DNA of 64,000 nt from a virus (lineage: Duplodnaviria; Caudoviricetes), in the IMG/VR virus record IMGVR_UViG_3300032227_000893, positions 3,482-67,481 of that record; one strand, given 5' to 3'. The notes below the pieces were generated by a model. It had not been told where the DNA came from. It did no database searches and saw only the letters and a list, made by a program, of their open reading frames with translations. Shown here one piece after another: positions 6,495 through 48,093 of the stretch (position 1 is the stretch's first letter; each line of letters starts with the position of its first letter). Made by a program: the position numbers and the translations under genes.

Positions 6495-7874
6495 TCAACG
6501 AATGAGGCTATCTATCCAATTGAGGTCGTCATCCCTAGATGCTTGCAAGATTGCTGCCGCCATAGCGAATGCATAGTCATCCACCCCCACCTCTTTGCCG
6601 CCACTAATTGACCACTGCCCGGAGGCCTTGTATATCACGCTTAAATTCTTGAGCTGCTTAATTGCCTTCTCATGATTATAAATATCCACAAGTCCAGCGT
6701 TAAATAATTCCTTCATCTTGCTGAATGCCTTCATCTTGCTGCTAACGGACCAAGTGAGTTCTTCAATAGGGAAATCAGCAGCAAGAGATTGAATGGTGGC
6801 AGAACTGTTGTACTGGTCAAGAACAATGCTGTCAAAATTGTAAAGCTTATGGTGTTCTCGTATCCAGTCCTCCACTGCTTGAATACTCACTTCCTTTTTC
6901 CCATTGATCTCAAAATCTGCAAGGAACGTGTGGAACTTATCCACCACCAGGGTTTCCCCATCGAAATGCACAATGCACGCTGTGTAGTCATCTCGTCCCA
7001 CGCCCCCGCGTGCGGGGTCAAGTGCCAGCACGTACTTGCCGTGGAAATGCACCGAAGGTGGCAACAAGCTCCGATGTTTGTTGATTGCTGCTTCTACCAC
7101 TTCAGAGGCCAGCAGCGCTGACATGTTGCGAGCAAACTGCGCCCCATATTCAATCATGAACTTATCTGGATCGCGCTTGCGCTCTGCCTGCATGAAGGCA
7201 CAGTCATAAGGCAGTTCAGGATTCATCTCCCAGGTGGGAGTGTTTACGGGCTGCATAAAGGGAAATTCCCCACTGGTGGCTTCGCAAAAATGCTGATAGA
7301 ACAGACCGTCAGTGAGCCATGGCGAGGAGAGTTCCAAAATGCGACCATGATTGCCGAACTGAGCAATGGATGGAGAAAGAGCGTCGTAGATGGCCTTCGC
7401 ACCAGCGTTTGCATCACCCTCCTGACTGAAGGCAAGCTCGTCCATGATGATTGCAGCTACGGCGCGACCACGAGACGCACGAGCACTGCTAGAGATGGCC
7501 CTAAATACGCAGCCATTGCTTATTTCAAGCGTGTCCGTTGTCTCTCTTACAATCTCTTGGGCGAAGGGGCTTTCAACAATCAAACCACGAATGGTGTTGA
7601 GCGCAATCTTGGCCTGGTCAATGCCGTTAGCAATAGTGCAAATATACCAACTCTCTCCTTTGCGAATCTTGCGTTTGTATTTCTCCTCTAGGACGAAGCA
7701 AATGTAGGTGCAGGCAACTGCTGCCATGAGCGTTTTGCCAGAACGTCGACCAAGTGCCCACACAGCATGAGTCTTGCCGCCATGGAAAAATTCATCAAGA
7801 ATATCAGCTTGTTTGTCCCATAGAGGAAGCTTTAACGCATGCCGCGCAAAGTCCGAACATTTAATTGCTGCCAT
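6495..7874 (-). CDS. terL: terminase large subunit
   Basis: Walker A GRRSGKT, Walker B IIMDE, nuclease LALDPA...DDY and D-Q-Y; 459 aa. Confidence 0.93.
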   Translation of the reverse strand: MAAIKCSDFARHALKLPLWDKQADILDEFFHGGKTHAVWALGRRSGKTLMAAVACTYICFVLEEKYKRKIRKGESWYICTIANGIDQAKIALNTIRGLIVESPFAQEIVRETTDTLEISNGCVFRAISSSARASRGRAVAAIIMDELAFSQEGDANAGAKAIYDALSPSIAQFGNHGRILELSSPWLTDGLFYQHFCEATSGEFPFMQPVNTPTWEMNPELPYDCAFMQAERKRDPDKFMIEYGAQFARNMSALLASEVVEAAINKHRSLLPPSVHFHGKYVLALDPARGGVGRDDYTACIVHFDGETLVVDKFHTFLADFEINGKKEVSIQAVEDWIREHHKLYNFDSIVLDQYNSSATIQSLAADFPIEELTWSVSSKMKAFSKMKELFNAGLVDIYNHEKAIKQLKNLSVIYKASGQWSISGGKEVGVDDYAFAMAAAILQASRDDDLNWIDSLIR

Positions 7875-8424: not shown

Positions 8425-10323
8425 ATGGCTGAGGAAACTGTTGATTTAGGGCATGCCACCGAAGCCGGACTGCGGAATGACGGACTCGCCAATGCGCTGA
8501 CTGGCATGGGAAGCGGCAGGGATAAGAGCCAATACACCTACACCAAGCCCATTACTTTCCTTATGCAGGAGGAGCTGGAAGGGCTCTATGGGGAATGGCT
8601 GCCGCGCCGCATCATCGACATCTATGCAGAGCAAGCCACCCGCAAGGGATTCAAGGTGCTGTTTGGCGGCGAGGGCGCCAAGGCCGAGGAAGTGGTGGGC
8701 GTGGAGCAAGTGATCGAGGATCTATATATTCTCGAAAGCTTGATGCTGGCATCAAAGAATTCTCGCCTCTATGGTGGTGCCGTAATCCTGCTCTACATTA
8801 ACGACGGTCGCTCTGCTGATCAGCCAGTCGACAAAAAGAATATTGCCGAAGTTGAGGGGCTGGAAGTATTAGATCGGTATCAAATTGCCCCGGTAATTAC
8901 TGAAGAAAATATCTACGATTACGCAAAGGCAACGCACTATCAAATTATTTCCGGCGATTTGATTAATCAGCCCAATCTCACCTACATCCACAAGGATAGG
9001 ATTTTACGTTTTGATGGTGACTGGCTTCCCTATCGTATCAGGCAAAGGAACTATGGGTGGGGACTGAGCAACTTGCAAGTCGTTTATGACAGCTTCCGTC
9101 ATTATTGGACTGGCTTGAATTCTGCTGCCACTTTGCTGACTGAATTTGACATTTTTGTTCACAAGATTCGTGGGCTAGCTTCCATGCTTGCTGCTGGCAA
9201 GGAAGGGCAGGTCAGGGACAGGCTTGTGCTAAACGACATGAGCAAGAGCGTTTATCGTGGCTATGCCATTGACGCAGAAAAGGAAGAGCTTAACTTTGAA
9301 AGCCGTAACCTTGGAGGTATTGGCGAAATTCTTGAGAAGCTTCGCGTAGATATTATTGGTGCATCTAAGATTCCCCACACCTTGTTGTTTGGCGAGAGCC
9401 CTGGTGGCCTTGGCTCCACTGGCCGCAGTGAGGAGCGTGACTTTGCCAAGACACTTGCTGACTATCAAACGGCAACGTTTAAACGTCCGTTGAAACAACT
9501 GATGGAATACATCCTGCTCAGCAAGACTGGCCCCACCAATGGCCGCCTTCCAGAATCATGGCGCATCCATTTCAACGACTTGTACGAGTTGAATGAGCGT
9601 GAAAAGGCTGACGTAAGGGCTCGTGTGGCAGCCGTAGATGGCCGCTACATCCAACTAGGTGTCCTCCATCCAAAAGAAGTGGCAGACGCTCGCTATGGCG
9701 GTAGCGAGTGGAACATGGAACTCACTCTCGACCCATCGCTTCCTCGCGAGCTGCCAGTGCAGGGGCGGAGTGGAGGGCAGAGTCAGGGGCAGAGTGGCTT
9801 TGCCGTACCCCCTGGTGGCCGCGATCCTCTTGATCAAACATCTGGCAGCTTGCCAATGGATGGCACTCGCAATGCCACTGACAGCACTGGCCCCTACATT
9901 TACAATTACAACACGGTTCACGAACGTAGCACGTTTCTGGAGGAAGAATCAGAAACAAACCGTGAAGAAGAGGATTCCTTCTCTGACAAAGATCTTCATC
10001 AGCAAGCAGTGGCTGCTGCGAAGAGTAGGTTTGCCGTGTATCCATCTGCCTATGCCGGAGCTTACATCTCTCAAAAATACAAGGATTTGTATAAGCGCAA
10101 GTACGGTTCGATGAAGGGTGCATTCAAGGGGAAAAAGAAGGCAATGACAATGCCCAAAACTGATGCCGCAGAGGCCATGAAAGTCTCTGGGCTACTCTTG
10201 AATGATTACGACGAAGCTGCCCTGGTCAATCAATCAGACATTGACGCTGCTCTGAATGAATGGAAGACAGAAGCACCAGAGCGTTTCAAGGACATCCTGG
10301 AGGCAACTAATGTCGAGCCTTGA
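8425..10323 (+). CDS. portal protein (DUF1073/HI1409-type) with long C-terminal extension
   Basis: SRLYGGAVIL, IHKDRILRF, IPHTLLFGESPGGL, ADYQ..FKRPL; first gene of the head operon. Confidence 0.88.
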   Translation: MAEETVDLGHATEAGLRNDGLANALTGMGSGRDKSQYTYTKPITFLMQEELEGLYGEWLPRRIIDIYAEQATRKGFKVLFGGEGAKAEEVVGVEQVIEDLYILESLMLASKNSRLYGGAVILLYINDGRSADQPVDKKNIAEVEGLEVLDRYQIAPVITEENIYDYAKATHYQIISGDLINQPNLTYIHKDRILRFDGDWLPYRIRQRNYGWGLSNLQVVYDSFRHYWTGLNSAATLLTEFDIFVHKIRGLASMLAAGKEGQVRDRLVLNDMSKSVYRGYAIDAEKEELNFESRNLGGIGEILEKLRVDIIGASKIPHTLLFGESPGGLGSTGRSEERDFAKTLADYQTATFKRPLKQLMEYILLSKTGPTNGRLPESWRIHFNDLYELNEREKADVRARVAAVDGRYIQLGVLHPKEVADARYGGSEWNMELTLDPSLPRELPVQGRSGGQSQGQSGFAVPPGGRDPLDQTSGSLPMDGTRNATDSTGPYIYNYNTVHERSTFLEEESETNREEEDSFSDKDLHQQAVAAAKSRFAVYPSAYAGAYISQKYKDLYKRKYGSMKGAFKGKKKAMTMPKTDAAEAMKVSGLLLNDYDEAALVNQSDIDAALNEWKTEAPERFKDILEATNVEP

Positions 10324-10993
10324 TAATCTTGCATCATTTAGCGATGCAGTAATGTCCACCAGGATGGACGCTAATTGGTCTTATGACCCCGTTAGCGGTC
10401 GTTATCGAGGCGAAAACGGCCGTTTCCTTAGTCGAAAAACCGTTGAAGCCCTGGTTGACGGTCGTGTTGGTAAGCTATCAACGCAACTCAAGGACTATAC
10501 GAGGCGGCTTTCTGATGGTTCCATCACCATTGATCAGTGGCAGGGCAGTGTACGTGAGGCCCTCAAGGCGGCGCACATTCAAGCGGCGGTTTTGGGGCAG
10601 GGTGGACGCAATGCGCTGTCACCTTCAGACTATGGCCGCATCGGTCAAAAGCTTCGTCAAGAATACCGTTATCTTGAACGCTTTGTTCGTGATTTACTTG
10701 ACGGGGCTGTGTCTAGCGCCCATGCTATTAATCGTATTGGCCTATACGCTGAAAGCGTTCGTAGTTCTTACTGGGAAGGAACTACGGTTCGTCAGGAGCA
10801 GCAAGGCTACTCACTCATGCGACGAATCCTGGATGGCCAAGCTGTTCACTGTCAGGATTGCATTGGTTACGCACAAAGAGGAGTAGTGCCAATTGGCAGT
10901 CTTCCGATGCCTGGACAACGGTGTGAATGTCGCGCACGATGCAAATGCACTATTGAATATCTGAGGCAGCAAGCTCCGACTGTGCCCATGTGA
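10310..10993 (+). CDS. MuF-like head morphogenesis / minor capsid protein
   Basis: Follows the portal; HCQDC...PG.RCECRARCKC C-terminus. Confidence 0.75.
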   Translation: MSSLDNLASFSDAVMSTRMDANWSYDPVSGRYRGENGRFLSRKTVEALVDGRVGKLSTQLKDYTRRLSDGSITIDQWQGSVREALKAAHIQAAVLGQGGRNALSPSDYGRIGQKLRQEYRYLERFVRDLLDGAVSSAHAINRIGLYAESVRSSYWEGTTVRQEQQGYSLMRRILDGQAVHCQDCIGYAQRGVVPIGSLPMPGQRCECRARCKCTIEYLRQQAPTVPM

Positions 10994-11031
10994 AGAATTG
11001 CTACTATCATCGGACTAATTCCGGTTTTCCC

Positions 11032-12252
11032 GTGGCAAAAATTCTTTACTGTGGCGATGTTGGTTGTCAGACGGGCTTTGGCCGAGTAGCTGAATATCTG
11101 ATTCCTGCACTGGCAAAGGAGCACGAGGTGTACGCTCTAGCCGTCAACTATGGGGGTGACCCCAATGAAATGCAGCAGATATGCCAAATGTACCCAGCGA
11201 TGGCATACGGCACTGACCCATTTGGGTCTGATCGCATTGCTGAACTGGTGCAATGTATTAAGCCGGACTTGGTGTGGGTGACCAATGACTTTTGGATTGC
11301 CATCAATCTCTGGCATCAAATCAAAGAGCTAAAGGAAACAATTCCTTTTAAATTTTTCTGCTATACACCAATTGATTCCTACGGCATCTATCCAGAAACA
11401 ATGCCGCCTACTCAGGAATGGGATGGCCTGGCCACTTACACGCGGTTTGGTGCGGAAGAGCTGAGAAAAGCTGGTTACGACAAGCATATTGATATTGTTG
11501 GCCACGGCACTGATTTTACCAAGTTTTTCCCCATTGAGAAAATGGAAAGCCGAAAGGCTTTGGGTGTGCCTGAAGATGTTTTTATTATTTTCAATGGCAA
11601 TCGAAATCAACCACGCAAGCGAATTGACTTAACGATCAAAGCTTTCATCAAGTTTGCTCTTGACAAGCCAGATGCTCGATTGTGGCTTCACATGGGCAAG
11701 AAAGATATGGGATGGGATTTAGTGCCACTGTTTAAGCGCGTAGCTCGCGACATGGAATACGAAAGCGTTGGCAAGCTCATCCTTACCGGCTCAACATTTT
11801 CTACCCACAACTGTCTTCCTGTAGAGCAGTTGAATCAGGTGTATAACGCTGTTGACATTGGCGTGAACACTTGCATTGGAGAGGGCTGGGGGCTGGTCAA
11901 TACAGAGCACGCTGCTACTGGTGTGGCGCAATTAGTGCCCGATCATACTAGTTTTAAGGAGATTTTCCATGACATCCCCCGCATTCCCATCGAAAGCTGG
12001 GAAGTCGATAGGAACTATGGACTAGACAGGGGACAGCCCTCTCCCGATGGATTGGCAGAGCTTCTCACGCAATACTACGAGGATCGTGAGCTGCTGGCTT
12101 CCGTGGGAAAATTGTGCTACGAAGATGTTCATCAAACAGAACTGACCTGGCCTGCTGTGACGAGCAAGATGGAGGCAATTGTTAAGAGATTGCTTGCGCA
12201 GCCCAGCGAGAAAGAGCCTAAAGGTTTCGGCATGCCTGTGAGGATTGATTGA
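11032..12252 (+). CDS. GT-B glycosyltransferase (GT4-like)
   Basis: TGFGRV, GHGTD, NRNQPRKRID, EGWGLVNTE motifs; GTG 11032 preferred over 10990. Confidence 0.88.
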   Translation: MAKILYCGDVGCQTGFGRVAEYLIPALAKEHEVYALAVNYGGDPNEMQQICQMYPAMAYGTDPFGSDRIAELVQCIKPDLVWVTNDFWIAINLWHQIKELKETIPFKFFCYTPIDSYGIYPETMPPTQEWDGLATYTRFGAEELRKAGYDKHIDIVGHGTDFTKFFPIEKMESRKALGVPEDVFIIFNGNRNQPRKRIDLTIKAFIKFALDKPDARLWLHMGKKDMGWDLVPLFKRVARDMEYESVGKLILTGSTFSTHNCLPVEQLNQVYNAVDIGVNTCIGEGWGLVNTEHAATGVAQLVPDHTSFKEIFHDIPRIPIESWEVDRNYGLDRGQPSPDGLAELLTQYYEDRELLASVGKLCYEDVHQTELTWPAVTSKMEAIVKRLLAQPSEKEPKGFGMPVRID

Positions 12253-12254
12253 TC

Positions 12255-12968
12255 ATGGAAATCTCGCAAATCTTTCTTAGCGATGCTCCGAATGCACAGT
12301 TGTCACCTTTTCTGAAGATGACGACTGGCACTGTTAAAGCTGCCTTCCCGGAGGCTAATCACACTATCTACACCAATGAAACACTTCGTCAATTTATTGT
12401 TGACAACTATAGCTCTCATGTGGTTTGGGCTTACGATTCACTTGCTCCCTATTCGTACAAGGCGGATCTTGGGCGATTCTGCCTCTTGAATAAGCTTGGC
12501 GGATGGTATTTTGACATTGCAGTGAGAGTGATGAATCCAGTGGATATTGGAGAGCGCATTGAATTCCTGGCATTCCGTGATATTCAACGATTTTCGTTCA
12601 CTAGTTGGGCCTGTGCCACAACAGTGCTTTATTCCAAGCGTGATAACAAGGCATTGCAAACTGCCGTCGATATGATTATTGACAATTGTCGCGAAAAATA
12701 CTATGGAATCACTCCATTGTGCCCCACTGGCCCAACGCTTTTGGGTGCTGCGCTGGCCGCAAATGGTGGCAATGCAAACCACGTCTTTGGCGACTACCTA
12801 GAACTCACGCCCACGCACGAACAGAAGAATCGCGCATTCGTGCTGCCTAATGGCACGATTATGGCATGGAGTAAGCCTTCGGGCGGTGGTGACCTCACTC
12901 AACTGGGGGCCAAGGGCACGAACAACTACAACGAACTATGGGCATCCAAAAGGGCGTACACATCATGA
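12255..12968 (+). CDS. GT-A glycosyltransferase (Gly_transf_sug / GT32-like)
   Basis: KADLGRFCLLNKLGGWYFDI and TGPTLLG motifs. Confidence 0.8.
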   Translation: MEISQIFLSDAPNAQLSPFLKMTTGTVKAAFPEANHTIYTNETLRQFIVDNYSSHVVWAYDSLAPYSYKADLGRFCLLNKLGGWYFDIAVRVMNPVDIGERIEFLAFRDIQRFSFTSWACATTVLYSKRDNKALQTAVDMIIDNCREKYYGITPLCPTGPTLLGAALAANGGNANHVFGDYLELTPTHEQKNRAFVLPNGTIMAWSKPSGGGDLTQLGAKGTNNYNELWASKRAYTS

Positions 12969-13618
12969 CTTCTCTCACTGACCTTGCCAACAGCTATAAC
13001 AGCGACAAGGGAAACGTGTATAAATGCGCTCATCACTACACAAAGCACTACGAAGATATCTTCCGGGTTTATAAATCCAGGAAGAATTTGTCCCTGCTAG
13101 AGATTGGTTTGAACCGTGATGACTGCGGCGACATTCCATCATTGCGCATGTATAAAGACTATTTTGGCGAAGAAATAAATCTCTACGGTTTCGATATTCG
13201 GCCAGAATTCAAAGCGTTTGAAAGGGAGGGATTCAATATTTACATTGGCGATCAATCTGCTCCGTCAAGCCTTGAACAATGTCTTGCCAAAGATTATGAT
13301 ATTGTCATTGACGATGGCAGCCACGCATCCTCCCATCAGCAGATTTCACTTCGCGAGCTATGGGCAACCGTAAAACCTGGCGGTGTTTATATTATTGAAG
13401 ACCTACATTGGCAGCCATTTCCCGAATCTTGGCGCAGTACGGCTGAACTTGGTAAAGATTGGTTGCGGGGCGATATGAAGGGGTCGGCATTTCTTTCGCA
13501 GTTATGGATGCAACAGTTTGAAAAAGAGCTAAGGGCGGTAGAACTTTTGCCATCCGCTAGCAAGCTGCATGATCCTTCTTTAACCGAAAACGCCCTCCTC
13601 ATTCTTTGGAAAAAATGA
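12965..13618 (+). CDS. class I SAM methyltransferase, sugar O-methyltransferase-like
   Basis: LLEIG, GFDI, GDQS, IDDGSH, VKPGGVYIIEDL; ATGA overlap with the GT. Confidence 0.82.
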   Translation: MTSLTDLANSYNSDKGNVYKCAHHYTKHYEDIFRVYKSRKNLSLLEIGLNRDDCGDIPSLRMYKDYFGEEINLYGFDIRPEFKAFEREGFNIYIGDQSAPSSLEQCLAKDYDIVIDDGSHASSHQQISLRELWATVKPGGVYIIEDLHWQPFPESWRSTAELGKDWLRGDMKGSAFLSQLWMQQFEKELRAVELLPSASKLHDPSLTENALLILWKK

Positions 13619-14847
13619 CAACTAGCTGGGACTGCTTTGATACGCTTGTCACACGCAGGCGACTTGATCCATTGTCTGTTTTTGACGACATGGGAATCAA
13701 GCTTGACTTAGATAATTTTACGGTGCGCCGAAAGGCTGCTGAAGGTCGGGCTCCTTGGACACTGCATACTATCTACGAAGAACTTGCAAAAGATTATCAA
13801 TGGACTGAAGCACAGAAGGAATATTACAAGCAAGAAGAAATCAACGCAGAGCTAGAACATTGCTGTCCCATTGTTGAAAATATTAACAGGGTTGCAGATG
13901 GTGACTTGATCGTTAGCGATATGTATCTACCGCCGGAAGCTGTTGAAGCTATCTTGCGCAAAAATGGCCTCAATAGGGATGTGCAAGTAACTGTCACCAC
14001 AGGAGGTAAAAGTTCTGGAACCATTTGGAGTACACTTCCACATATTGATTTACATGTGGGGGATAATTTCCACTCAGATGTTGCCAGCCCCCAAAACGCT
14101 GGTATCAAGGGAGAACATTACACGGATGTTCATTTGACACCTTTCGAGCAAAACATGGGCGGAGACATGGCTCTCCTGATGCGCGTCATCCGGCTGGCAT
14201 GTCCCTATGAAAAGGGTAGCCTGATGTGGCATATGTGGATTGATCAGGCGGGGTTAAACATTCCAGCCTTGGTCCTGGCCTCCCTGGAAATTCCTTTGGA
14301 GAATGTTGCCTTTGTGATGAGGGATTCGGTCCATTTAAAGCGCATTTATGATGCACTACATAATACAGTAAGCGCTGAATTCCATTGCTCTCGCATTGCC
14401 CTAGGGAGCGGAGGAGTTGCTTGGAGAAAATATGTAGAAGAAACTGCTAAAGGAAAGCTTATCGTTGATTTACAGGGGACGGGAGGAAGCGTTATTAATT
14501 ACTGGCGTCAAACATTCGGGGAGGATCCTCAATTGCTTTACTTGACCGGCACGTTGCGTCTCGGTACATTGCTAGCCCCATGCCTTCACGATGCAATTGA
14601 AAGGCTTAACTCCTCCCCGCTTGGAAGCTTGTCCGCTTATCCGCATCGCAAGCCTTGTGAGTTCAACAAAGACGTGCTTGACTGCCAGGAAAAAGCAGTG
14701 AGCAATGCTATTGGGCATCTTCCGTATTTCAACTTTTCTCCCAATATCAATGTATTTCGCTTCTTGGTGGAGCAAATGCCCCACACCACAACATTCAAGC
14801 AAAACATCCACGTGGATAACCATGAAAACGTTTCTGATGTAGAATAA
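13615..14847 (+). CDS. HAD phosphatase + phosphoribosyltransferase two-domain protein (ribofuranosyltransferase-like)
   Basis: N-terminal SWDCFDTL, IVSDMY, K-SG, HVGDN..SD; C-terminal FVMRDS and IVDLQGTGGS; ATGA overlap. Confidence 0.7.
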   Translation: MTTSWDCFDTLVTRRRLDPLSVFDDMGIKLDLDNFTVRRKAAEGRAPWTLHTIYEELAKDYQWTEAQKEYYKQEEINAELEHCCPIVENINRVADGDLIVSDMYLPPEAVEAILRKNGLNRDVQVTVTTGGKSSGTIWSTLPHIDLHVGDNFHSDVASPQNAGIKGEHYTDVHLTPFEQNMGGDMALLMRVIRLACPYEKGSLMWHMWIDQAGLNIPALVLASLEIPLENVAFVMRDSVHLKRIYDALHNTVSAEFHCSRIALGSGGVAWRKYVEETAKGKLIVDLQGTGGSVINYWRQTFGEDPQLLYLTGTLRLGTLLAPCLHDAIERLNSSPLGSLSAYPHRKPCEFNKDVLDCQEKAVSNAIGHLPYFNFSPNINVFRFLVEQMPHTTTFKQNIHVDNHENVSDVE

Positions 14848-15505: not shown

Positions 15506-15810
15506 GCGAATACGTCCGTGTGATCGAAGCTGAGGAGGATGGGATTGGCGTGATGAAGGCGCTAGCCATCTTGTCATCCAATGAACATCGCAATACCAGT
15601 GAGTGGCACTTGGTTGAAAAGCAATGCTTCAAAAATGGGCGGCTAGACGAAACGCATATTTATTGCGAGAGTCATTACGACAAGCCTGATGAGTATTTTG
15701 AAAAGACAAAATTCCTCACCTTTGAGGTGGAGGCAATGGCAAAAGCGTACATCATGGAGGGCATTGAAGAAGCAATTCGCTCCACTCAAGAGGAAGGCGA
15801 CGAAGACTAA
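15502..15810 (+). CDS. hypothetical acidic protein
   Basis: GTGA overlap with the preceding ORF. Confidence 0.65.
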   Translation: MSEYVRVIEAEEDGIGVMKALAILSSNEHRNTSEWHLVEKQCFKNGRLDETHIYCESHYDKPDEYFEKTKFLTFEVEAMAKAYIMEGIEEAIRSTQEEGDED

Positions 15811-16058
15811 TCTCTTATTGCGTTGACAACAAAGCTAGGCATGCCCAGAAGCCATAGCACGGACAATCCATAGAGGCCGCTTAACGTGGCTAGTTGCACT
15901 GCGCTTGGCTCTGTTTCGCCGTTTTCAATACGGCAGTAAGTGGATTGTCCAATGTGCAAAACTTGTGCCACATCACGCTGGGTAAGGCCGCTGTTTAGTC
16001 GTGCATCTTTTAGCCGCGAAGCTACCAACGCACGACGTTGGTAGTGTGGCATGTTCAT
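15807..16058 (-). CDS. XRE/Cro-C1 family HTH regulator
   Basis: RLKDARLNSGLTQRDVAQVLHIGQSTYCRIENGETEP...LSVLWLLG. Confidence 0.88.
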   Translation of the reverse strand: MNMPHYQRRALVASRLKDARLNSGLTQRDVAQVLHIGQSTYCRIENGETEPSAVQLATLSGLYGLSVLWLLGMPSFVVNAIRD

Positions 16059-16136
16059 CGCATTGACACTGCTGGCCACAAATCTAGTCACGTGATTCGT
16101 CTCTGGTTCAGGAATCGCAATCTAACACAAAATGTT

Positions 16137-16151: not shown

Positions 16152-17345
16152 ATGAGCACCACATGCTTTCGCTACGATGTAGCGCCAATCGAGAAATACG
16201 AAACCACACCTGAGGGTTACCTGAGGTGCTGGTCTACTATTGCGCGGACAGGTGTACAAAATTACACCAATTCCGATGGTTCGATTCGGCGCGAATATCG
16301 TCCCGTAAGCGAAGTGGCGTCTCCCGAAAGCTTGGCCTCGTTTGCGGGCAAAGCAATCACTCTTGAACATCCTCCCGTATTGCTCGATAGCGACAACACT
16401 AAAGACTATCAAATTGGCTTTAGTGGCACGGAAGTGGTTTATGACAACGGATTTGTCCGTGCAGTCATGACCATTACAGATGCAAAAGCAATTGAGCAAA
16501 TTATGCGTGGTGATGCAAAAGAGGTAAGCGCTGGCTATAGGGTTTCCTATGATCCGACGCCTGGTGTTACCGAAGGTGGTGAAGATTACGATGGCATCCA
16601 AACGGGTATCAGCGGAAATCACATTGCTGTGGTGCGCAGGGGCCGGGCGGGCCCGCAAGTGAAGCTACATCTGGATCGTCTGGATGCCGCTGATCCATCT
16701 CTAATGAATACTGAGGAACCATCTATGACTGCTAAGGTCGTGTTTGATGGCGCCGAGTTCGAGGTGACCGAGAGCGTAGCTCTGGCGATCACCAAAGAAC
16801 GTGAAGACGCCAAGATGTCCTACGAGGACATGAAGAAAAAATACGATGGCATGATGTCCGAAGCTTCTTCCCTCAAGGAAGAAATGGACGCCATGAAGAA
16901 GGAAATGAGCGGTAAGTGCGACTCTGCTGAAGGTCGTGCTGATGCACTCGCCGAAGAAGTGGAAGTCCTGAAAACGGACCTTTCCGCTGCTCAGCAAGTG
17001 AACGTCGACAGCCTCGTCGAAGAGCGCATTGCTCTGATTGACAAGGCTCGCACGTCGCTTGATTCCGCTTTTGATTTTGCTGGCAAGTCTGCTCGTGAAA
17101 TCATGGAAGCTTCCATCAAAACTGTTCGTGGCGACGAATGTGATCTGTCGGATCGTTCCGATGATTACGTGACTGCCATGTTCGACACCCTGGCTGTAAC
17201 CAGCGCTCGCGCTGATTCTGCCAACACTGATGAGCTGCGTAAAGCTGTTGCTTCTATCGCTGCTCCTCTTTCTGCACCTGCGTCCTACATGGACAAGTTG
17301 CAGAATGCTTGGAAATCCCCTCTCTCCGTCTCTAAGGAGCGCTGA
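16152..17345 (+). CDS. DUF2213 prohead protease/scaffold
   Basis: TPEGYL..ARTG, ITLEHP, EVSAGY, NHIAVVRRGRAG; C-terminal coiled-coil scaffold. Confidence 0.88.
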   Translation: MSTTCFRYDVAPIEKYETTPEGYLRCWSTIARTGVQNYTNSDGSIRREYRPVSEVASPESLASFAGKAITLEHPPVLLDSDNTKDYQIGFSGTEVVYDNGFVRAVMTITDAKAIEQIMRGDAKEVSAGYRVSYDPTPGVTEGGEDYDGIQTGISGNHIAVVRRGRAGPQVKLHLDRLDAADPSLMNTEEPSMTAKVVFDGAEFEVTESVALAITKEREDAKMSYEDMKKKYDGMMSEASSLKEEMDAMKKEMSGKCDSAEGRADALAEEVEVLKTDLSAAQQVNVDSLVEERIALIDKARTSLDSAFDFAGKSAREIMEASIKTVRGDECDLSDRSDDYVTAMFDTLAVTSARADSANTDELRKAVASIAAPLSAPASYMDKLQNAWKSPLSVSKER

Positions 17346-17348
17346 TCC

Positions 17349-17909
17349 ATGGCCGTAACTTTCTCTGCCTCGGGGACTGCTTCTGCAGGTGGCGTGCAAC
17401 AGAGCTATGCTCTGACTCACGTTGCTCTGCTGGAAGGTCAACTCTCCGACGCTCGCGATAACACCATTGGCACCTATGTCAATGAAACTGGCGCTGTTCT
17501 TGCCTTTGGCAACGGCGTTTCTTATAACACTAGCGGCACCGTTGCTAACTCTGCAAAAACTCTTGCAGGTAGTGGCGAGTCCTTCTTGGGCGTTAACGTT
17601 CTCACTTATGTGGACGAAACCGCTCTGAATACCAATGGCCGTCCCGGTGTCAAGGCTGCTCAGGTGGCCAACGTCATCAATCAGGGTGGAGTTGCCGTGT
17701 ACGTTCACGGTTCTGTTACCCCTGCGACTGCTGTTCGCGTGATGCACACCACTTCTGGTGTTCGCTACGCAGGTCAGTTCACTGCTGCCGCTGTCCCCAC
17801 CCGCTCGGCAGTGCTGTCCAATGCCCGTTACCTTAACGCTGTCACTGGTTCCGGCCTGGCAATTCTTGAGCTGAACGGTCCTTCCTTCACCCTCACTGGC
17901 GACTCGTAG
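17349..17909 (+). CDS. head decoration/cement protein
   Basis: Between protease and MCP; Ala/Gly/Thr beta-rich. Confidence 0.7.
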   Translation: MAVTFSASGTASAGGVQQSYALTHVALLEGQLSDARDNTIGTYVNETGAVLAFGNGVSYNTSGTVANSAKTLAGSGESFLGVNVLTYVDETALNTNGRPGVKAAQVANVINQGGVAVYVHGSVTPATAVRVMHTTSGVRYAGQFTAAAVPTRSAVLSNARYLNAVTGSGLAILELNGPSFTLTGDS

Positions 17910-17920
17910 GAGACTTACCA

Positions 17921-18835
17921 ATGAACGATTTTCGCATGGATGATGCGGGTCTGTTTCTCCAGCGTCAGCTTGAGTACATCCGCCCCCAGGTATTTGAAAC
18001 TGTTTACGCAGACATCAAGTACCCCACAATTCTGCCTGTAACCAGCGAAGCTGGTCCTGGCGCAACCACTTTCACCTATCGGATCATGGATTCGACCGGT
18101 GAGTTCCGTCTGCTGGCCGACAGTGCTGACGATCTGCCCCGTGCAGACGTGAGCCAAGTCGAGAAGAGCATCAACATCCGCTCCTTCGGTGGTTCCTTCG
18201 GTTATTCCGTCCAGGAACTGCGTGCCGCACAAATGGCTAACGTTGCTCTTGAGCAGCGCCGTGCTACTGCTGTGCGTCGTGCTTACGAGGAGAAAGTGGA
18301 AAGCGTTGCCATGTTTGGCGAAGCTTCTGTTGCTCTCACCGGCTTCTTCAACAATGCCACTGTTGACATTGTTGCTGCTGACAAGTGGTTCACCACTGCT
18401 GGTATCACTGCTCAGGAAATGCTGGAACTGTTGAACTATGGCGTTAGCGCCATCATTAATGGTTCACAGATGAAGGAGCAGCCCGACACCATTCTGCTTG
18501 CTTACGAGGACTACAACAAAATCAGCGTCACTCGCAACTCCGATTCTTCGGACGTGACTGTGCTTGAGTATTTCCTCCGCACCAACCCCTACATCACGAA
18601 CGTTGAGCCCATCAACCAACTGACCAAGGGTAAGAATGGTGGCAAGCTCAACACCAGCCGCATGGTGGTGTACAAGCGTGATCCCGAGAAAGTGCAACTG
18701 CACATTCCCCAACCCCTTGAGCTGTTCCCCGCTCAACAACGTGGTCTTGAGTTCATTGTCCCTGCTCACGCTCGCGTGGGTGGTGTGGCTCTGTACTATC
18801 CCAAGAGCATGATCTACGTTCAAGCTTCTTCTTGA
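17921..18835 (+). CDS. major capsid protein (DUF2184/encapsulin-like HK97 fold)
   Basis: FLQRQLEYI, ADDLP, GYSVQEL, GFFNN, RVGGVALYYP; strongly biased codons. Confidence 0.9.
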   Translation: MNDFRMDDAGLFLQRQLEYIRPQVFETVYADIKYPTILPVTSEAGPGATTFTYRIMDSTGEFRLLADSADDLPRADVSQVEKSINIRSFGGSFGYSVQELRAAQMANVALEQRRATAVRRAYEEKVESVAMFGEASVALTGFFNNATVDIVAADKWFTTAGITAQEMLELLNYGVSAIINGSQMKEQPDTILLAYEDYNKISVTRNSDSSDVTVLEYFLRTNPYITNVEPINQLTKGKNGGKLNTSRMVVYKRDPEKVQLHIPQPLELFPAQQRGLEFIVPAHARVGGVALYYPKSMIYVQASS

Positions 18836-41508: not shown

Positions 41509-43962
41509 ATGGCCACCCTGTACATAGATCCCGATGGTGGTGATGACAACTACGGAGGCACTAGCTTTGCGCTGCTCGCTTCTGGCACCAATGGCCGCAT
41601 TACCAGTACGACCTTTAGTAGCGTTGGTGCATCTTTCCCAAACGACGGATCTTTGATTGGTCAATATCTCAGTATTTTTAACGGCAGCATATTCGCAGTT
41701 TACAGAATTGCGGCGTGGTTATCAACAACTTCGCTAACGCTTGCGGCCATAACCAATGGAACAGCCTTGGCCAACCAAGCCGTAGATCGTCAATATTACA
41801 TTGGCGGTCGATGGGCCACTATGTTGACTGGCGCAACAGCGGTGCGAGTAGAACCTGGCGACACTGTTCGCTTCAAAGCGAGTCCTTATCCCACAAGCCT
41901 GGGAATGAATGGTAAATGGACATCAGGTATCGTGGAAAACACGAAGGTAATATCTGCTGCAACCAATACCACTCCCATACAAATTACTCTTGCGGCACAT
42001 GGGTACAGCACGGGAGACACTATAACTCTTGAGGGTGTTGCGGGAGCAGTTACTGCCAATGGTTTCTGGGAGATCACAGTAATTGATGCAAATACTTTTT
42101 CTCTTGATGGGAGTGTAGCTGCGGGCGTGCGAACTTCGGGAGGGATTACCCGGAGGCGCAATAACTCTGTTGTAATGCTGGATACTGCTGTCACGCAAAA
42201 TATTGCGAGCACTGGGCAACGCACGACAGCATGGACGGCAACCTCCGCAAACGTGACCACTGGGCTGACAACTAATTTTGTCAGAGAGCACTACTACTCG
42301 GATAGTATTTCCATCAATGGCGCGTTTACGACTGGCGTTGCTGCATATTGGCCCACGGGAACACTTAATCTAAGTGGGTATCAGCAGGTTTCTTTTTGGA
42401 TACTGCTACAAAATGGCACTCTACCCCCTCAGGGCTCTCTTAGGCTTCATTTGTGTTCTGACGGTCTCGGTCAAACCCCTGTGAACACTATTTCCATTCC
42501 TGCTTTGGTGGCGCTGACCCGTTGGCAGCCAGTTACTGTAGATCTTGCCACTAACCTAGGTTCAAACATAAACAGCATCGCCCTGTTCGTCAATACTGAC
42601 CTTGGGGCTCAAACTATTATCTTAAGCAATATTATTGCATGTAAGGCAGCTAGCTCCCCTGACTCACTGACTCTCAACAGCCTCATTGGCAAAAATATTA
42701 CAGGCGAGACTTTTTGGAGCATTCAAAATATAAGTGGACGACGAGTTGTCCTTGATTCTGACACCACGCACACCACTGCCAGCACTAACTGGAGGGGGTA
42801 TTTTGGGGCAACTGGAACCGTAACCACGTGGAAGAGAGAAGCTTTTCGGTTTACCCCCGCAGCCCTATCCAACACAGCAGCACTCACTATCCCAGAGGGT
42901 GGTAGTTCCATTGTCTCTCGCATTATTTATAGTGGCGGATGGGATCGCACAAACATGTCGACGCAAGATGGTGTTAGCTGGGTTGACGGTCAAAACGGTA
43001 ATGGCTACGGTATATTTATGTCTGGTTTTAGTTATTTCGACGTTAAACAATTTGCTTTTTCCAGATTTCAAAATGGTTTATATATTCAAAGCTCTAACAA
43101 TATAATTTTTGACATTACAGCCTTAAATAATAACACTAACGGTGTGTTCACTTTTAGCAATTGCTTTGGGCTTGATATGACGGTTGGCCACGTAGCCGGT
43201 TCTTTCAGTAATGGTATTACTTTTAACGCAGCAATCAGCAAGCTATACCTCCAGCACGCAATTGTTAGCATAGGAGGCGCCGCCTTAGACATTAACGTTG
43301 ACTCCTACTCAACGATTAGGGGTTCCGCAACGTTTGTCATGAATAATGTTCAAGGCGTTGGCGCAACCATCAGATCTGTTGGCGGTAAGTTTTACGATTT
43401 GCAATTGCAGGGGGCCACTCAATCCGTTAGTTGCAACGGCATGGTTGAGGCCAGCCTTGTGAACTGCAATCTCGCCAGTGCCACCGAAGTCAATGTTAGT
43501 GGGGGGCAAGGTATCAGGGTTGCATCTCAAGATCACGATCAAACTCCTGGAAATCATAAAATGTTTGGGAACATGGGGAATATTAGCTCGGCTGTGGATG
43601 AACGATATGTGGCAAGTGGTTATAGCTGGAAGCTGCAACCTCTTGATAGCCGGGCCAGTGACTTATCCCCACTAATACTGCCCCTGGCCAAGGTAGCTTG
43701 CGCTGCCAATAGCCTGGTAACGATAACGGCGCAAATGCGTAGAAACAATGCCTTGTTGACAATGCGGTTAATGTGCAAGGGTGGTCAGATTTCAGGGGTT
43801 ACTACTGATGTATCGGCACAAGTATCAACTACTAATGCCTGGGAGCAGGAAACAATTACTTTCACTCCAACGCAAACAGGTGTAGTGGAAATTACTGCTG
43901 AGGCGTGGGGTGGCACCACCCTTTCCGGCTGGGTAGACGCCCTTACCATTGCGCAAGCCTAA
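41509..43962 (+). CDS. large structural/receptor-binding protein with FCCH-like and beta-helix-like regions
   Basis: LYIDPDGGDD; IQITLAAHGYSTGDTI; Asn/Gly-rich repetitive C-terminal half. Confidence 0.7.
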   Translation: MATLYIDPDGGDDNYGGTSFALLASGTNGRITSTTFSSVGASFPNDGSLIGQYLSIFNGSIFAVYRIAAWLSTTSLTLAAITNGTALANQAVDRQYYIGGRWATMLTGATAVRVEPGDTVRFKASPYPTSLGMNGKWTSGIVENTKVISAATNTTPIQITLAAHGYSTGDTITLEGVAGAVTANGFWEITVIDANTFSLDGSVAAGVRTSGGITRRRNNSVVMLDTAVTQNIASTGQRTTAWTATSANVTTGLTTNFVREHYYSDSISINGAFTTGVAAYWPTGTLNLSGYQQVSFWILLQNGTLPPQGSLRLHLCSDGLGQTPVNTISIPALVALTRWQPVTVDLATNLGSNINSIALFVNTDLGAQTIILSNIIACKAASSPDSLTLNSLIGKNITGETFWSIQNISGRRVVLDSDTTHTTASTNWRGYFGATGTVTTWKREAFRFTPAALSNTAALTIPEGGSSIVSRIIYSGGWDRTNMSTQDGVSWVDGQNGNGYGIFMSGFSYFDVKQFAFSRFQNGLYIQSSNNIIFDITALNNNTNGVFTFSNCFGLDMTVGHVAGSFSNGITFNAAISKLYLQHAIVSIGGAALDINVDSYSTIRGSATFVMNNVQGVGATIRSVGGKFYDLQLQGATQSVSCNGMVEASLVNCNLASATEVNVSGGQGIRVASQDHDQTPGNHKMFGNMGNISSAVDERYVASGYSWKLQPLDSRASDLSPLILPLAKVACAANSLVTITAQMRRNNALLTMRLMCKGGQISGVTTDVSAQVSTTNAWEQETITFTPTQTGVVEITAEAWGGTTLSGWVDALTIAQA

Positions 43963-43964
43963 TC

Positions 43965-44159
43965 ATGACTTATCACATTCACGCTGTTGAACAAGACATT
44001 GCTGCCAAATGGTACGCCCGTGTCTGTATCACCGAAGAGAAAGCAGTTTTGTTGAAGTTTCAAAACTATCCAACAATGGAGGAAATTCAAGAGGCCGCTC
44101 AACAGTATGTTGCCTCATTGATGGCAACAGAGGAGGCCACAGATGCCGCTTCCGAGTGA
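43965..44159 (+). CDS. small hypothetical protein (possible fibre chaperone)
   Basis: ATG 43965 two nt after the upstream stop. Confidence 0.55.
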   Translation: MTYHIHAVEQDIAAKWYARVCITEEKAVLLKFQNYPTMEEIQEAAQQYVASLMATEEATDAASE

Positions 44160-46539
44160 CACCAATTTAGAGACACTTGACTACGTCTATCTAGGCCAAC
44201 CATTTGTCAATGTAGAAGCCAAAGCGCTTAATAGCACCACTTTAGATATTGCCTACCTTGGCCAACCTTTTGTCGCCGTTGGCCCAGCAACAGCGCCAAC
44301 GGCTTATGCGATTACCGCAGACAAGGGAACTTTCACCCTTACCGGCGGTGCGGCTAATCTAATCTATACGCCAAATTTAACAAATTACACAATCGCCGCA
44401 AGTGTTGGCACGTTTATATTAACTGGCAATGCAGCCAGCCTCAGTGAAAACCGAAGACTGGCTGCAGAAACAGCAATCTTTGCTCTTGCTGGAAACACTT
44501 CCAATTTAATTTATAGTCGGCGCTTGATTGCCGATAAAGGCACTTTTGCCCTGGTCGGAAATGCTGCCAATCTCAACGGTAGCTTCAAGATAACAGCAAG
44601 CCAAGGTAATTTTGCCCTGGTTGGAAATGCTGCCAATCTCAACAAAGGTCGACGCCTGGCTGCGGAAGCGGGCGTCTTTACTTTTACTGGAAGCGCGTCT
44701 AATTTAATTTACGGCAGGCGGTTAATCGCAAGCAAAGCAACTTTTGCGCTCACTGGCAACGTTGCTAACTTGAATCGCAATTATCGTTTAATTGCCGCAA
44801 GTGGTTCTTTTGTCGAGATAGGCAATGATGCCGGGCTCAGGCGAGCACGTCGTTTAATTAGCGCTACCGGCAGTTTTGCGATAACAGGCATCACTGCAAC
44901 ACTAAGAGCCACACGTTATTTGTCTGGCGGTAGTGGGTCTTTTATCGAGACCGGCCAAGCTGCGTCGCTGGCCAAGGGCCCGCGTTTAGTCGCTGGCGTT
45001 GGCATATTCAGTGAAACTGGCAGGGCTGCCTTCTTTATCCGCACTAGTGTTATTGGTGCAGTTACTGGCAGTTTTACTGTCAGCAGCACTGGAGCAGGAT
45101 TTAATAATCAAAAGCGTATATTTGGTGCAAATGGTTCTCTCGTCTTAACGGGAAATGCCGCTAATTTAAATCATGGCCAACGATTAATTGCAGACAAAGC
45201 AACCTTTTCTGCTGCCGGGAGTTCAGCAAATCTAACCCGTGGCTTAAGACTTGTCGCCTCCAATGGCATCTTTGCCTTGACAGCCAACGCTGCTGATTTC
45301 AAGCGCAATGCGATTCTTTCTGCTGCCCCAGGCACATTTTTGCTAACGGGTAATCCTGTCACTTTCAATGGACAGCGCAATATCCTCGCGGCCGCTGGTA
45401 CTTTTGCCGTTACTGGCAGCGCTGCAACACTTCGCTCAACCCATCGCCTCGTTGCGGAAACTGGAGCATTTTCTGAAACAGGCAACGCTGCCGCGTTAAA
45501 AATAAACCGAAGAGTAAGTGCTGCGTCCAGCAATTATACACTTGCAGGTAACGCAGTAAATCTAAACCGTGATTTAAAACTTGTCGCTTCTGCTGGCGTC
45601 TTTGCCTTGACGGGCAATGCTGTTGATCCCAAGCATGATGCCATTCTTTCCGCCGATCCCGGAACGCTCGCACTTACAGGTAATTCTGTCACCTTCAATG
45701 GGCAACGCAATATTTTGGCGGGTGCTGGCGCCTTTACCGTTGCTGGCAGTGCTGTAATATTTCGCATTACCCGTCGCCTCGTTGCAGAGACTGGAGTATT
45801 CTCCGAGACAGGCAACGCTGCCGCGTTAAGAGTAGATCGAAGAGTAATTGCCGCATCTAATAATTATACGCTTGTTGGCAATGCTGCCACTTTTGCTATT
45901 GCCACGCCATTCCGAACACTGACTGCGAGCGTGGGAACGTTTGCTCTTGTTGGCAGGGCTGCAATACTTCTCCGGGGGCATCGCCTTGCTTGCGAACCTG
46001 GCACTTTTAACGAGACAGGTAGAGCTGCAACCTTCAGGGTAAATAGAAGCATTATTGCGGCTACTGGCTCTTTTGCAGTTAATGGCAACGATGCAAACCT
46101 AATCAAAAACGTTCCATTTAGAACGCTTACCGCAGTTGCGGGAACATTTGCCCTCACCGGCAAGGCGGCTGGATTGCTTAAAGGTTGCACTTTAATTGCA
46201 AACACCAAAGTTTATGCATTAAGTGGCAATGCTGCAACCTTTAGACATACGCGAATGTTGACGACGGAAAGAGGTGTTTTCTCCGTCACCGGCAATCCAT
46301 TCAACCTGCTTGCCACCCGACTTTCCGCTTCAAATGCTGGTGTCTTTACGCTTACCGGGCAAGAAATTGGCCTAAGAAAGCAACAGCAAATCATCGCAAC
46401 CGTTGGAAGTTTTACTCTTGTAGGCAATGGCGTTATGTTGCTTGGTTCTAATAAGCTTCAATCCGTTGCTGGCGAATTTCTTGTGGTCGGCAGTGATGCA
46501 CGCACGTTCAAAACACGTCGGCGAATTATTAATTTTTAG
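44143..46539 (+). CDS. 22-aa tandem-repeat fibre/solenoid protein
   Basis: About 30+ units of R.L.A..G.F.(L/E)TGNAA.L. Confidence 0.8.
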   Translation: MPLPSDTNLETLDYVYLGQPFVNVEAKALNSTTLDIAYLGQPFVAVGPATAPTAYAITADKGTFTLTGGAANLIYTPNLTNYTIAASVGTFILTGNAASLSENRRLAAETAIFALAGNTSNLIYSRRLIADKGTFALVGNAANLNGSFKITASQGNFALVGNAANLNKGRRLAAEAGVFTFTGSASNLIYGRRLIASKATFALTGNVANLNRNYRLIAASGSFVEIGNDAGLRRARRLISATGSFAITGITATLRATRYLSGGSGSFIETGQAASLAKGPRLVAGVGIFSETGRAAFFIRTSVIGAVTGSFTVSSTGAGFNNQKRIFGANGSLVLTGNAANLNHGQRLIADKATFSAAGSSANLTRGLRLVASNGIFALTANAADFKRNAILSAAPGTFLLTGNPVTFNGQRNILAAAGTFAVTGSAATLRSTHRLVAETGAFSETGNAAALKINRRVSAASSNYTLAGNAVNLNRDLKLVASAGVFALTGNAVDPKHDAILSADPGTLALTGNSVTFNGQRNILAGAGAFTVAGSAVIFRITRRLVAETGVFSETGNAAALRVDRRVIAASNNYTLVGNAATFAIATPFRTLTASVGTFALVGRAAILLRGHRLACEPGTFNETGRAATFRVNRSIIAATGSFAVNGNDANLIKNVPFRTLTAVAGTFALTGKAAGLLKGCTLIANTKVYALSGNAATFRHTRMLTTERGVFSVTGNPFNLLATRLSASNAGVFTLTGQEIGLRKQQQIIATVGSFTLVGNGVMLLGSNKLQSVAGEFLVVGSDARTFKTRRRIINF
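45244..45900 (+). repeat. 330-nt (5-unit) higher-order tandem duplication inside the repeat protein
   Basis: ttaagacttgtcgc at 45244 and ttaaaacttgtcgc at 45574 start two collinear similar blocks. Confidence 0.7.
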
Positions 46540-47005: not shown

Positions 47006-47404
47006 CTATTGTAGCTCGTCAAACTTGTAGGTGATCCTCATTTCGCCACCTAATGCCTTCACTTCATTACTGGCGTCTTCTGCTGCCTCCTGCTGGATCA
47101 GTACCGAAGGAACAACGGCGTCGGGCAATGGGGTGACGATGGCATGTGGATAAAGTTGCTTGGCTTGCTCGACTAATGTTGCAGCATTCTCAATGCGCTC
47201 CTCTTTCTCCCATTGCTCCACAATTTTGACAGTTTGCCTGTCAACATCCTTCATGATTTGCCGTGTTTTCCATTCAGTCCAATCAGGACGGCACCAAACA
47301 ATAAGCCTGGAGAGCCAGGGGTTAAAGGCCATTGAAGGACGCATTAGCACCAACCAAATTGCCAGCTCATAAAGCAGAGCATTGATCAGTGCTGATAGCG
47401 TCAT
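47006..47404 (-). CDS. N-terminally hydrophobic protein in the lysis cassette
   Basis: ATGA overlap with the endolysin. Confidence 0.6.
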   Translation of the reverse strand: MTLSALINALLYELAIWLVLMRPSMAFNPWLSRLIVWCRPDWTEWKTRQIMKDVDRQTVKIVEQWEKEERIENAATLVEQAKQLYPHAIVTPLPDAVVPSVLIQQEAAEDASNEVKALGGEMRITYKFDELQ

Positions 47405-48093
47405 GGTTTGACCAGTACAGCCCAGCCAGAATTGGGCCCCTCAACAGTCCAGCGGGGAGCCCAATATTTCTTCCCATAGTAAACACATTTGCCGCCTTCG
47501 CCACTGATGTATCCACCATGAATCACGTCTGCTGTGCCATACGGGTCGTTGTGAACGATGGAAAGCGCATCAAAGCCCACTGCCACGCTCCAGTGACCGC
47601 CTCCAGAGGGGGCTTTATAGCTCCCATGATGCAACCATCCAACCAGCACTGGACGACCCTCTTTCAGCTCCTTTTCAAGGGCTTCTAGGCCCATGTTTTG
47701 CTTGAATTCCGCCTGGAGTCCCAGGTGTTGCAAAGCCTTTAGTTGAGCGCTGGAATCAGTGGTGTCCCCGTAACGAGCGCGAATGCTGTTGTACTCGTCA
47801 TCACTGCCCACTTTTCCATAGAACTTTGCGACCATGGCGGAGCTGCTGCTAAAGCATTCACGACCGCCAGAGCCACTTTTGTTGTCACGCTGCCATTCGT
47901 AGGGTACGGACAGGATCGGAGATTTTTGCTTTCCATTCTGACTCCAAACCTTAAACCATTCGTTATTTTTGCTCATCAATTCAGGAGCAGTCTTCATGAG
48001 CTGCTCTTCAAGCAATTGCACGGCAGCACTTTGATACGGCAGTCCTTGCTTGTAATATTTGAACAAATCAGAAAGGCGAACGGAGCCAGACAT
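47401..48093 (-). CDS. C39-like cysteine peptidase, probable endolysin
   Basis: PYEWQRDN, ECFSSSSAM, GGGHWSVAVG, HNDPYG. Confidence 0.8.
   Translation of the reverse strand: MSGSVRLSDLFKYYKQGLPYQSAAVQLLEEQLMKTAPELMSKNNEWFKVWSQNGKQKSPILSVPYEWQRDNKSGSGGRECFSSSSAMVAKFYGKVGSDDEYNSIRARYGDTTDSSAQLKALQHLGLQAEFKQNMGLEALEKELKEGRPVLVGWLHHGSYKAPSGGGHWSVAVGFDALSIVHNDPYGTADVIHGGYISGEGGKCVYYGKKYWAPRWTVEGPNSGWAVLVKP

Follow-up and report, generated by a model that had tools for sequence, protein, structure and literature searches.

A compact candidate ribofuranosyltransferase encoded in the head-gene module of an uncultured siphovirus

Glycosyltransferases that take ribofuranose (Ribf) from phosphoribosyl pyrophosphate (PRPP) were recognised only in 2022-2023, and hitherto only in the synthesis of bacterial capsules and O-antigens. 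The founding paper is reportedly that of Kelly et al. from 2022. The chemistry of these ribofuranosyltransferases (Ribf-GTs) has been shown experimentally for Bcs3, for the Klebsiella pneumoniae O4 and O7 enzymes, for Salmonella STM0726 and for Campylobacter jejuni Cj1432 (PMC10299916, PMC11231755, PMC11294581, PMC12096443). The prototypical dual-domain enzymes are the polysaccharide ribofuranosyltransferase of Thermobacillus composti (structure 7SHG), K. pneumoniae O4 ORF5 and O7 ORF7, and STM0726. Bcs3, the capsule polymerase of Haemophilus influenzae b, is a multi-enzyme of 1,215 residues; besides the phosphatase domain CrpP and the transferase domain CriT it has an SH3b domain and a TagF-like transferase for ribitol phosphate. 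Here we describe a gene at positions 13615-14847 of a 64,000-nucleotide stretch of viral DNA (the window), which covers bases 3482-67481 of the 67,481-bp IMG/VR virus record IMGVR_UViG_3300032227_000893, a genome that CheckV rates as 94% complete. A first-pass annotation of the window had proposed that this gene encodes a dual-domain ribofuranosyltransferase, and knew of no characterised phage example.

We find that the gene very probably encodes a compact two-step ribofuranosyltransferase of the Ribf-GT family (PRP plus glycan phosphoribosyltransferase, gPRT; CrpP plus CriT). Sequence comparison and a predicted structure point the same way, and the proposed interpretation is borne out for the fold, for the order of the domains and for the active-site residues. 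What is new here is a viral Ribf-GT that is widespread in uncultured phages, paired with methyltransferases and of minimal architecture. A literature search found no description of a phage-encoded Ribf-GT, the works that name both ribofuranosyltransferase and phage being concerned with bacterial glycans; one of these describes, for a Caudoviricetes genome, a pentofuranose system that has three components and works by a different mechanism. The window protein stands alone in a phage, has 410 residues where 7SHG has 648, and shares about 14-23% overall identity with Bcs3. The known Ribf-GT genes serve the making of O-antigen or capsule in bacteria, in pathways that include ABC transporters, whereas this gene lies in a phage head-gene module where no transporter is seen.

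The gene itself is real and under selection. It comprises 410 codons, from an ATG at 13615 to a TAA stop at 14845-14847, and all 36 of the aligned homologues start at the methionine of MTTSWDCFDT. An in-frame TTG start at 13606, three codons further 5', was dropped, as both the homologue starts and an ATGA overlap with the preceding gene favour the ATG. Translation at the exact coordinates recovered every motif that the first-pass annotation had quoted, namely DCFDT (residues 6-10), SD (101-102), K132, GDNFHSD (149-155), FVMRDS (233-238), SR (259-260) and IVDLQGTGGS (283-292). Since D6, D9, T10, D102, K132, D150, R236, R260, D285 and E329 do not vary among 44 aligned relatives, which are 26-67% identical to the window protein, these matches are not chance. 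A word-indexed protein search returned 159 relatives, from 90% down to about 35% identity, and a profile search of 1.84 billion representatives gave 9,102 matches at E<=1e-3, the majority of which span both halves of the protein. An AlphaFold2 model of the whole protein, built with the family alignment as input, is very confident, with a pLDDT of 94.8 and a predicted TM-score of 0.92.

The N-terminal half is homologous to CrpP. Searched against the sequences of solved structures, it matches the CrpP part of Bcs3 at E 2.8e-10 as a single sequence, at 4e-17 with a family profile and at 1.9e-29 with a broader profile; 7SHG is matched by the family and broader profiles (E 3.3e-6 and 4.7e-9). CrpP keeps just the first aspartate of the usual DxD in HAD motif I (PMC10299916). 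The window protein has the same variant, D-x-F-D-T-L, with its second aspartate at +3 rather than +2. The complete HAD motif set that had been claimed is thus present and conserved (Table 1), so that the protein opens, as members of the Ribf-GT family do, with a phosphoribose phosphatase domain carrying the catalytic aspartate and motifs II-IV.

After the phosphatase, within one polypeptide and in the order typical of the family, comes the gPRT domain. Foldseek ranks Bcs3 (1.6e-16) and 7SHG (1.7e-8) as the top two matches of the full-length model. Residues 177-410 were also folded alone (pLDDT 94.9), and this model was compared with 48,161 representative chains with no Foldseek pre-filter; Foldseek, in agreement, gave 2.2e-4 for Bcs3, 0.07 for 7SHG and 0.05-0.08 for the phosphoribosyltransferases (PRTs) OPRT, UPRT, APRT and HGPRT. 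A PRT-type fold, as anticipated for this half, is therefore what the model has, and among such folds the modelled domain belongs specifically with CriT/gPRT.

In CriT, pyrophosphate is bound by S678, R679, S707 and S884, and the 5-phosphate by R708, R712, T825 and main-chain atoms of residues 821-825; D680 and E818 stand in for the DD pair of PRTs, with mutants being less active, and E874 is the proposed base (PMC10299916). The alignment of the broad profile continues past the end of CrpP into CriT (with the chain index corrected by one), which places the first two substrate-binding loops of the window protein (Table 1). For loop 3, the window sequence I-V-D285-L-Q-G-T-G-G-S292 can be set beside F-V-E818-F-W-G-R-G-Y-T825 of Bcs3: both have an acid that ends a beta-strand, glycines at +3 and +5, and a Ser or Thr at +7. 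The same register is given by a hidden Markov model alignment to IVDVGWKGT of 7SHG and by a weak BLAST segment to FVDVDGTRFT of a cyanobacterial bridge protein, and in the model a strand (282-288) is followed by a helix (291-301). The Bcs3 loop 3 sequence was read from the alignment of this bridge protein, a long-form homologue, with Bcs3 382-904 (E 1.6e-55); a 1,194-residue relative (P0166), also tried as a bridge, gave no match in the PDB. The equivalences proposed for loop 3 and E329 are based on sequence alignments and spacing. R236, R260 and D285 are among the invariant residues, and D237 and S259 occur in at least 90% of the 44 relatives. The FVMRDS...SR stretch and the IVDLQGTGGS segment, which had been likened to a PRPP loop, thus map onto the PRPP-binding and catalytic residues of CriT (the R-D of loop 1, the S-R of loop 2, and the acid and 5-phosphate loop of loop 3), and they are kept down to 26% identity.

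Could this simply be a classical type I PRT? Enzymes such as HGPRT, XGPRT, UPRT, OPRT and APRT form N-glycosidic bonds to bases and have an adjacent DD pair at the start of the PRPP loop, together with a hood or flexible loop. The window protein, like CriT and unlike these enzymes, would use two acids from different loops (D237 and D285). We rejected this identity because the adjacent DD pair is absent and the similarity to classical PRTs is far below that to CriT/gPRT.

In Bcs3 the active site of CriT is ringed by the helical bundles HB-2 (residues 716-795) and HB-3 (960-1036) (PMC10299916). The window protein has neither. HB-2 is missing because R260 and D285 are just 25 residues apart, whereas 110 separate R708 from E818, and HB-3 because the structural alignment stops at Bcs3 969. 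The bundles are a feature of Bcs3 rather than of the whole family, being absent or different in many of the roughly 400-residue relatives, and structural variety between Bcs3 and 7SHG is noted in the Bcs3 paper; we treat them as a variant feature that does not define the family. At 234 residues the transferase domain compares with 334 in Cj1432C, about 350 in 7SHG and 445 in CriT. It would be the smallest natural version of the enzyme, and as such attractive for structural work and for the chemoenzymatic synthesis of Ribf glycans. The lack of both bundles would also predict a more open entrance for the acceptor.

In the mechanism that we propose, the C-terminal domain would bind PRPP-Mg2+, with R236 and S259 holding the pyrophosphate, R260 and the G288-S292 loop holding the 5-phosphate, and D237 and D285 cradling the ribose. 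Ribf-5-phosphate would be passed, with inversion, to a hydroxyl on the acceptor sugar, so that a beta linkage forms and pyrophosphate is released, and the invariant E329 would be the likely general base. The HAD domain (nucleophile D6, with S101, K132 and D150/D155) would then remove the 5-phosphate, leaving a beta-Ribf residue that could be extended or O-methylated. The use of PRPP and the beta-Ribf product are what we infer from the homology. Such chemistry would have a phage glycan draw on the PRPP pool, on which the synthesis of phage nucleotides depends as well.

Table 1. Features of the candidate ribofuranosyltransferase gene and of the surrounding genes (window positions)
Feature	Position	Strand	Basis or remark
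Complete candidate two-domain ribofuranosyltransferase gene	13615..14847	+	Open reading frame (ORF) and direct translation
HAD-type phosphoribose phosphatase domain, residues 1-176	13615..14142	+	Helical cap between motifs I and II
HAD motif I DCFDT, D6 predicted nucleophile	13630..13644	+	Aligns to Bcs3 TFD386IFDTL
HAD motif II S101-D102 in IVSDMYLP	13915..13920	+	Invariant in homologue alignment; aligns to Bcs3 ASDMYLP
HAD motif III lysine K132	14008..14010	+	Invariant; aligns to lysine of Bcs3 QKSTGK (K548)
HAD motif IV GDNFHSD (D150, D155)	14059..14079	+	Invariant or nearly so; aligns to Bcs3 YGDNKHAD
Putative gPRT (CriT/gPRT-like) domain, residues 177-410	14143..14844	+	Helical bundle and five-stranded alpha/beta core
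Loop 1 R236-D237, equivalent of CriT R679-D680 (pyrophosphate and ribose binding)	14320..14325	+	Profile 'fttRDc' on Bcs3 'FISRDG'
Loop 2 S259-R260, equivalent of CriT S707-R708	14389..14394	+	Profile 'hsSRk' on Bcs3 'YGSRKAWRL'
Loop 3 D285-LQGTGG-S292, equivalent of CriT E818-FWGRGY-T825 (acid and glycine-rich 5-phosphate loop)	14467..14490	+	Spacing and 7SHG alignment
E329-R-L-N332, invariant Glu, candidate general base near CriT E874	14599..14610	+	Aligns to 7SHG 'AERYN'; register uncertain by one residue
Large terminase	6495-7874	-	
Portal	8425-10323		
Conserved phage protein, first of overlapping chain	10256..10993	+	phrog_24776, 6.2e-81; Phage_Mu_F Atlas lead 0.93, a lead only
GT4-family (GT-B) glycosyltransferase	10990..12252	+	PF00534 4.5e-7; phrog_2170 glycosyltransferase 1.4e-54
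GT32-like glycosyltransferase, DXD sugar-binding region	12249..12968	+	PF04488 Gly_transf_sug 7.7e-6, above cut-off
S-adenosylmethionine-dependent methyltransferase	12965..13618	+	phrog_21658 methyltransferase 2.3e-15; weak Pfam Methyltransf_24
Small proteins, first with DUF6496	14877 onward		
Helix-turn-helix repressor-like gene	15807-16091	-	
Head maturation protease	16152-17345		
Decoration or cement-like protein	17349-17909		
Major head protein	17921-18835		

The window comes from a siphovirus that is a relative of Synechococcus phage S-CBS4; in the head protease region the two have a nucleotide identity of 74%. Between the portal and head protease genes of the window phage lies a cassette of five genes (10256-14847), of which the candidate Ribf-GT gene is the last. 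The first of them, whose product is possibly a Mu-F-like minor head protein, overlaps the 3' end of the portal gene by 68 nt, and the five are joined by four successive 4-nt start/stop overlaps (GTGA, TTGA, ATGA and ATGA), the last being the ATGA shared by the methyltransferase stop and the ATG at 13615. The overlaps therefore indicate, on the gene arrangement, one translationally coupled unit. The methyltransferase gene has an alternative upstream ATG at 12938, and scans for promoters and terminators gave nothing above chance. Together with the upstream GT4, GT32-like and methyltransferase proteins, the Ribf-GT would build a short glycan. Elsewhere the genome encodes lambda-like tail proteins, ribonucleotide reductase, ThyX, dCTP deaminase, a primase-helicase and a Sak-like annealing protein; among the ORFs scanned we saw no lipid-carrier (initiating) transferase, flippase, transporter or integrase.

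A scan of IMG/VR found relatives at 51 distinct viral loci. The S-CBS4-like order from portal to major head protein is kept in 19 loci (16 from IMG/VR plus the separately fetched L002-L004). A methyltransferase gene stands directly upstream in 24 of the 47 viral loci that have enough upstream sequence, and in four further loci methyltransferase matches start about 100-200 nt past the end of the Ribf-GT match. In the S-CBS4-like group, two unrelated types of methyltransferase occupy the slot between the GT32-like and Ribf-GT genes: either the class I type of the window (12965-13618) or an FkbM-type Methyltransf_21 (e.g. L002:7384-8004). Because a non-orthologous replacement has kept the function in one slot, we take methylation to be part of the Ribf-GT pathway, and the pattern suggests that this step is required. 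At the equivalent place S-CBS4 itself has a portal gene, an unknown gene, a glycosyltransferase, a 'galactosyl transferase' and a methyltransferase, followed by an opposite-strand HNH endonuclease (NC_016766, record 12317-12832) where the window phage has its Ribf-GT gene. This position may be a site of gene exchange.

What is the acceptor? Our favoured guess, a tentative one, is a glycan on a virion protein, because the cassette lies, as a coupled unit, within the head module, because no export genes go with it, and because mycobacteriophages offer a precedent. Freeman et al. are said to have described the glycosylation of mycobacteriophage capsids and tails in 2023, and the enzymes for the capsid glycans of chloroviruses are another case of virus-encoded virion glycosylation. 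Like the window phage, these systems have glycosyltransferase and methyltransferase genes among or beside structural genes; their glycans are assembled in the cytoplasm with no export machinery, as would be the case here. They differ in using Leloir transferases that take nucleotide sugars, no PRPP-dependent ribofuranosyl step having been described for them. A fuller version of this reading, possible and held more loosely, is that this siphovirus and its relatives decorate a capsid or other virion protein with a short glycan that contains a PRPP-derived beta-ribofuranose, is capped or modified by O-methylation, and is made by a minimal, open-site Ribf-GT whose lack of HB-2 and HB-3 adapts it to a protein-borne acceptor. 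If the glycan is indeed carried by the virion, this would be the first viral PRPP-dependent glycosylation, and the first ribofuranosylated protein glycan.

The strongest competing explanation, which we consider rather unlikely, keeps the Ribf-GT chemistry and moves it to a glycan of the host envelope, i.e. to undecaprenyl-linked O-antigen, capsule or teichoic-like intermediates at the cytoplasmic face. The cell surface would then be altered, for instance by blocking superinfection or by changing recognition. All characterised Ribf-GTs do act on cytoplasmic polysaccharide intermediates that depend on ABC transporters, and terminal methylation is a known capping signal in envelope-polysaccharide pathways. 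The hosts probably make Ribf polymers as well: a profile search of 301 cyanobacterial genomes matched 35, mostly with long forms of 650-700 residues in genomes of 1.7-2.2 Mb, and including a split Bcs3-like pair. Furthermore, distant relatives of the window protein (about 38% identity) lie on contigs of about 100 kb to 356 kb with T4-type genes (gp32, RecA/UvsX-like and ResIII helicase). On these contigs their neighbours are replication genes rather than head genes, and they form part of clusters resembling lipopolysaccharide pathways (GT25, GT8, epimerase/dehydratase, mannose-1-P guanylyltransferase-like and UDP-glucose dehydrogenase genes). However, the cassette of the window phage is wedged by overlapping reading frames between portal and head protease genes, no gene for an initiating transferase, flippase or transporter is seen, and with no integrase among the ORFs scanned there is no indication of classical lysogenic seroconversion.

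The T4-like setting weighs against our overall reading, and so do several other points. S-CBS4 keeps the GT4, the second glycosyltransferase and the methyltransferase without a Ribf-GT, which makes the Ribf-GT an accessory addition to a conserved cassette. As for the enzyme, its assignment is drawn from homology and predicted structure, and no Pfam, PHROG or NCBIfam model matches the 410-residue protein. The C-terminal half gave no match in a single-sequence search of the PDB, and a profile of that half reaches 7SHG at E 0.1 at best. CriT S678 is replaced by Met235, R712 has no counterpart, and E329 (in AIERLNSS) falls one residue off E874 of Bcs3 (FFE874PIFAQTP) when the alignment is anchored on the following proline. 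The CriT active site is walled by HB-2 and HB-3, and in a protein that has neither, the handling of the acceptor and even the donor could differ.

A further alternative is that the fold is kept and the donor or function is another. The protein might then be a phosphatase whose PRT-like domain is non-catalytic or regulatory, or a transferase for small molecules or nucleotides rather than glycans. In favour of this, the transferase domain falls about 100-200 residues short of those characterised, its sequence similarity is marginal, and Salmonella STM0725 is a published case of a glycosyltransferase-like fold without the expected activity. That said, we consider this alternative improbable: the mapped PRPP-binding and catalytic positions are all retained down to 26% identity, the domain order and the pairing with a CrpP-type HAD domain (DxFDT) are exactly those of the Ribf-GT family, and the gene is found among glycosyltransferases in several unrelated phage lineages.

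Pentose modification of phage DNA is reportedly the subject of work by Pyle et al. from 2024. The idea that the cassette glycosylates phage DNA, with a pentose-containing glycan on a modified base serving restriction evasion, can point to arabinosyl-hydroxymethylcytosine in RB69 and to a pentose on cytosine in Shewanella phage Thanatos (PMC12838424), but it ranks well below both the virion-protein and the host-envelope acceptor and is very improbable because the genome, at 94% complete, has no hydroxymethylase of the thymidylate synthase family (only ThyX and dCTP deaminase were found), and known DNA pentosylation takes uridine diphosphate sugars rather than PRPP (PMC12838424), the cassette lies in the head module away from the genes of DNA metabolism, and it is not obvious what a 5-phosphatase step would do on DNA.

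Returning to the Ribf-GT assignment, it provides a testable chemistry for a family that is blank in Pfam, PHROGs and NCBIfam and whose members are labelled 'hypothetical' or 'HAD hydrolase'. It would imply that phages make ribofuranose-containing glycans, with a bearing on virion glycosylation, host recognition and the evasion of immunity or defence. A tblastn search of GenBank phages gave only two matches, both weak, one of them a 'HAD superfamily hydrolase-like protein' of Virus Rctr41k with a methyltransferase gene two genes upstream; no cultured phage therefore has a close relative. A signature pattern of the subfamily, run against 185,579 species genomes, was found only on one 5.3-kb contig of a metagenome-assembled genome, a result limited to the pattern and not implying absence from cells.

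Some of the cellular relatives deserve a description of their own. One cyanobacterium (G180:C5, genome of about 2.0 Mb) has at L068:218-3507 a pair of genes 5 nt apart, the first for a TagF-like CDP-glycerol/ribitol phosphotransferase (PF04464, 3.3e-64) and the second for a 676-residue CrpP-CriT homologue, which aligns to Bcs3 382-904 at E 1.6e-55. Judged by sequence, this pair is a split Bcs3-like capsule polymerase, as in Escherichia coli K18, and predicts that cyanobacteria with small genomes make a teichoic-acid-like polymer of ribosyl-polyol-phosphate. Another cyanobacterium (G060, genome of about 7.2 Mb) encodes a 702-residue protein (L066:1351-3459, minus strand) in which N-terminal TPR repeats precede a compact ribofuranosyltransferase-like module (E 3e-100); it is the sole clearly chromosomal compact form in the 301-genome cyanobacterial sample. 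Another relative, P0121 (1,884 residues), has five separate stretches that match the family profile and may carry several tandem ribofuranosyltransferase modules.

Two observations concern other parts of the window. Two large plus-strand ORFs 3' of the tail genes, 41509-43962 and 44143-46539 (817 and 798 residues), have no PHROG match at E<=1e-5. Among non-structural genes, the minus strand at 47401-48093 encodes a 229-residue protein with a papain-like cysteine protease domain (Peptidase_C70/AvrRpt2-like, 1.7e-9; Peptidase_C39-like, 2.5e-6).

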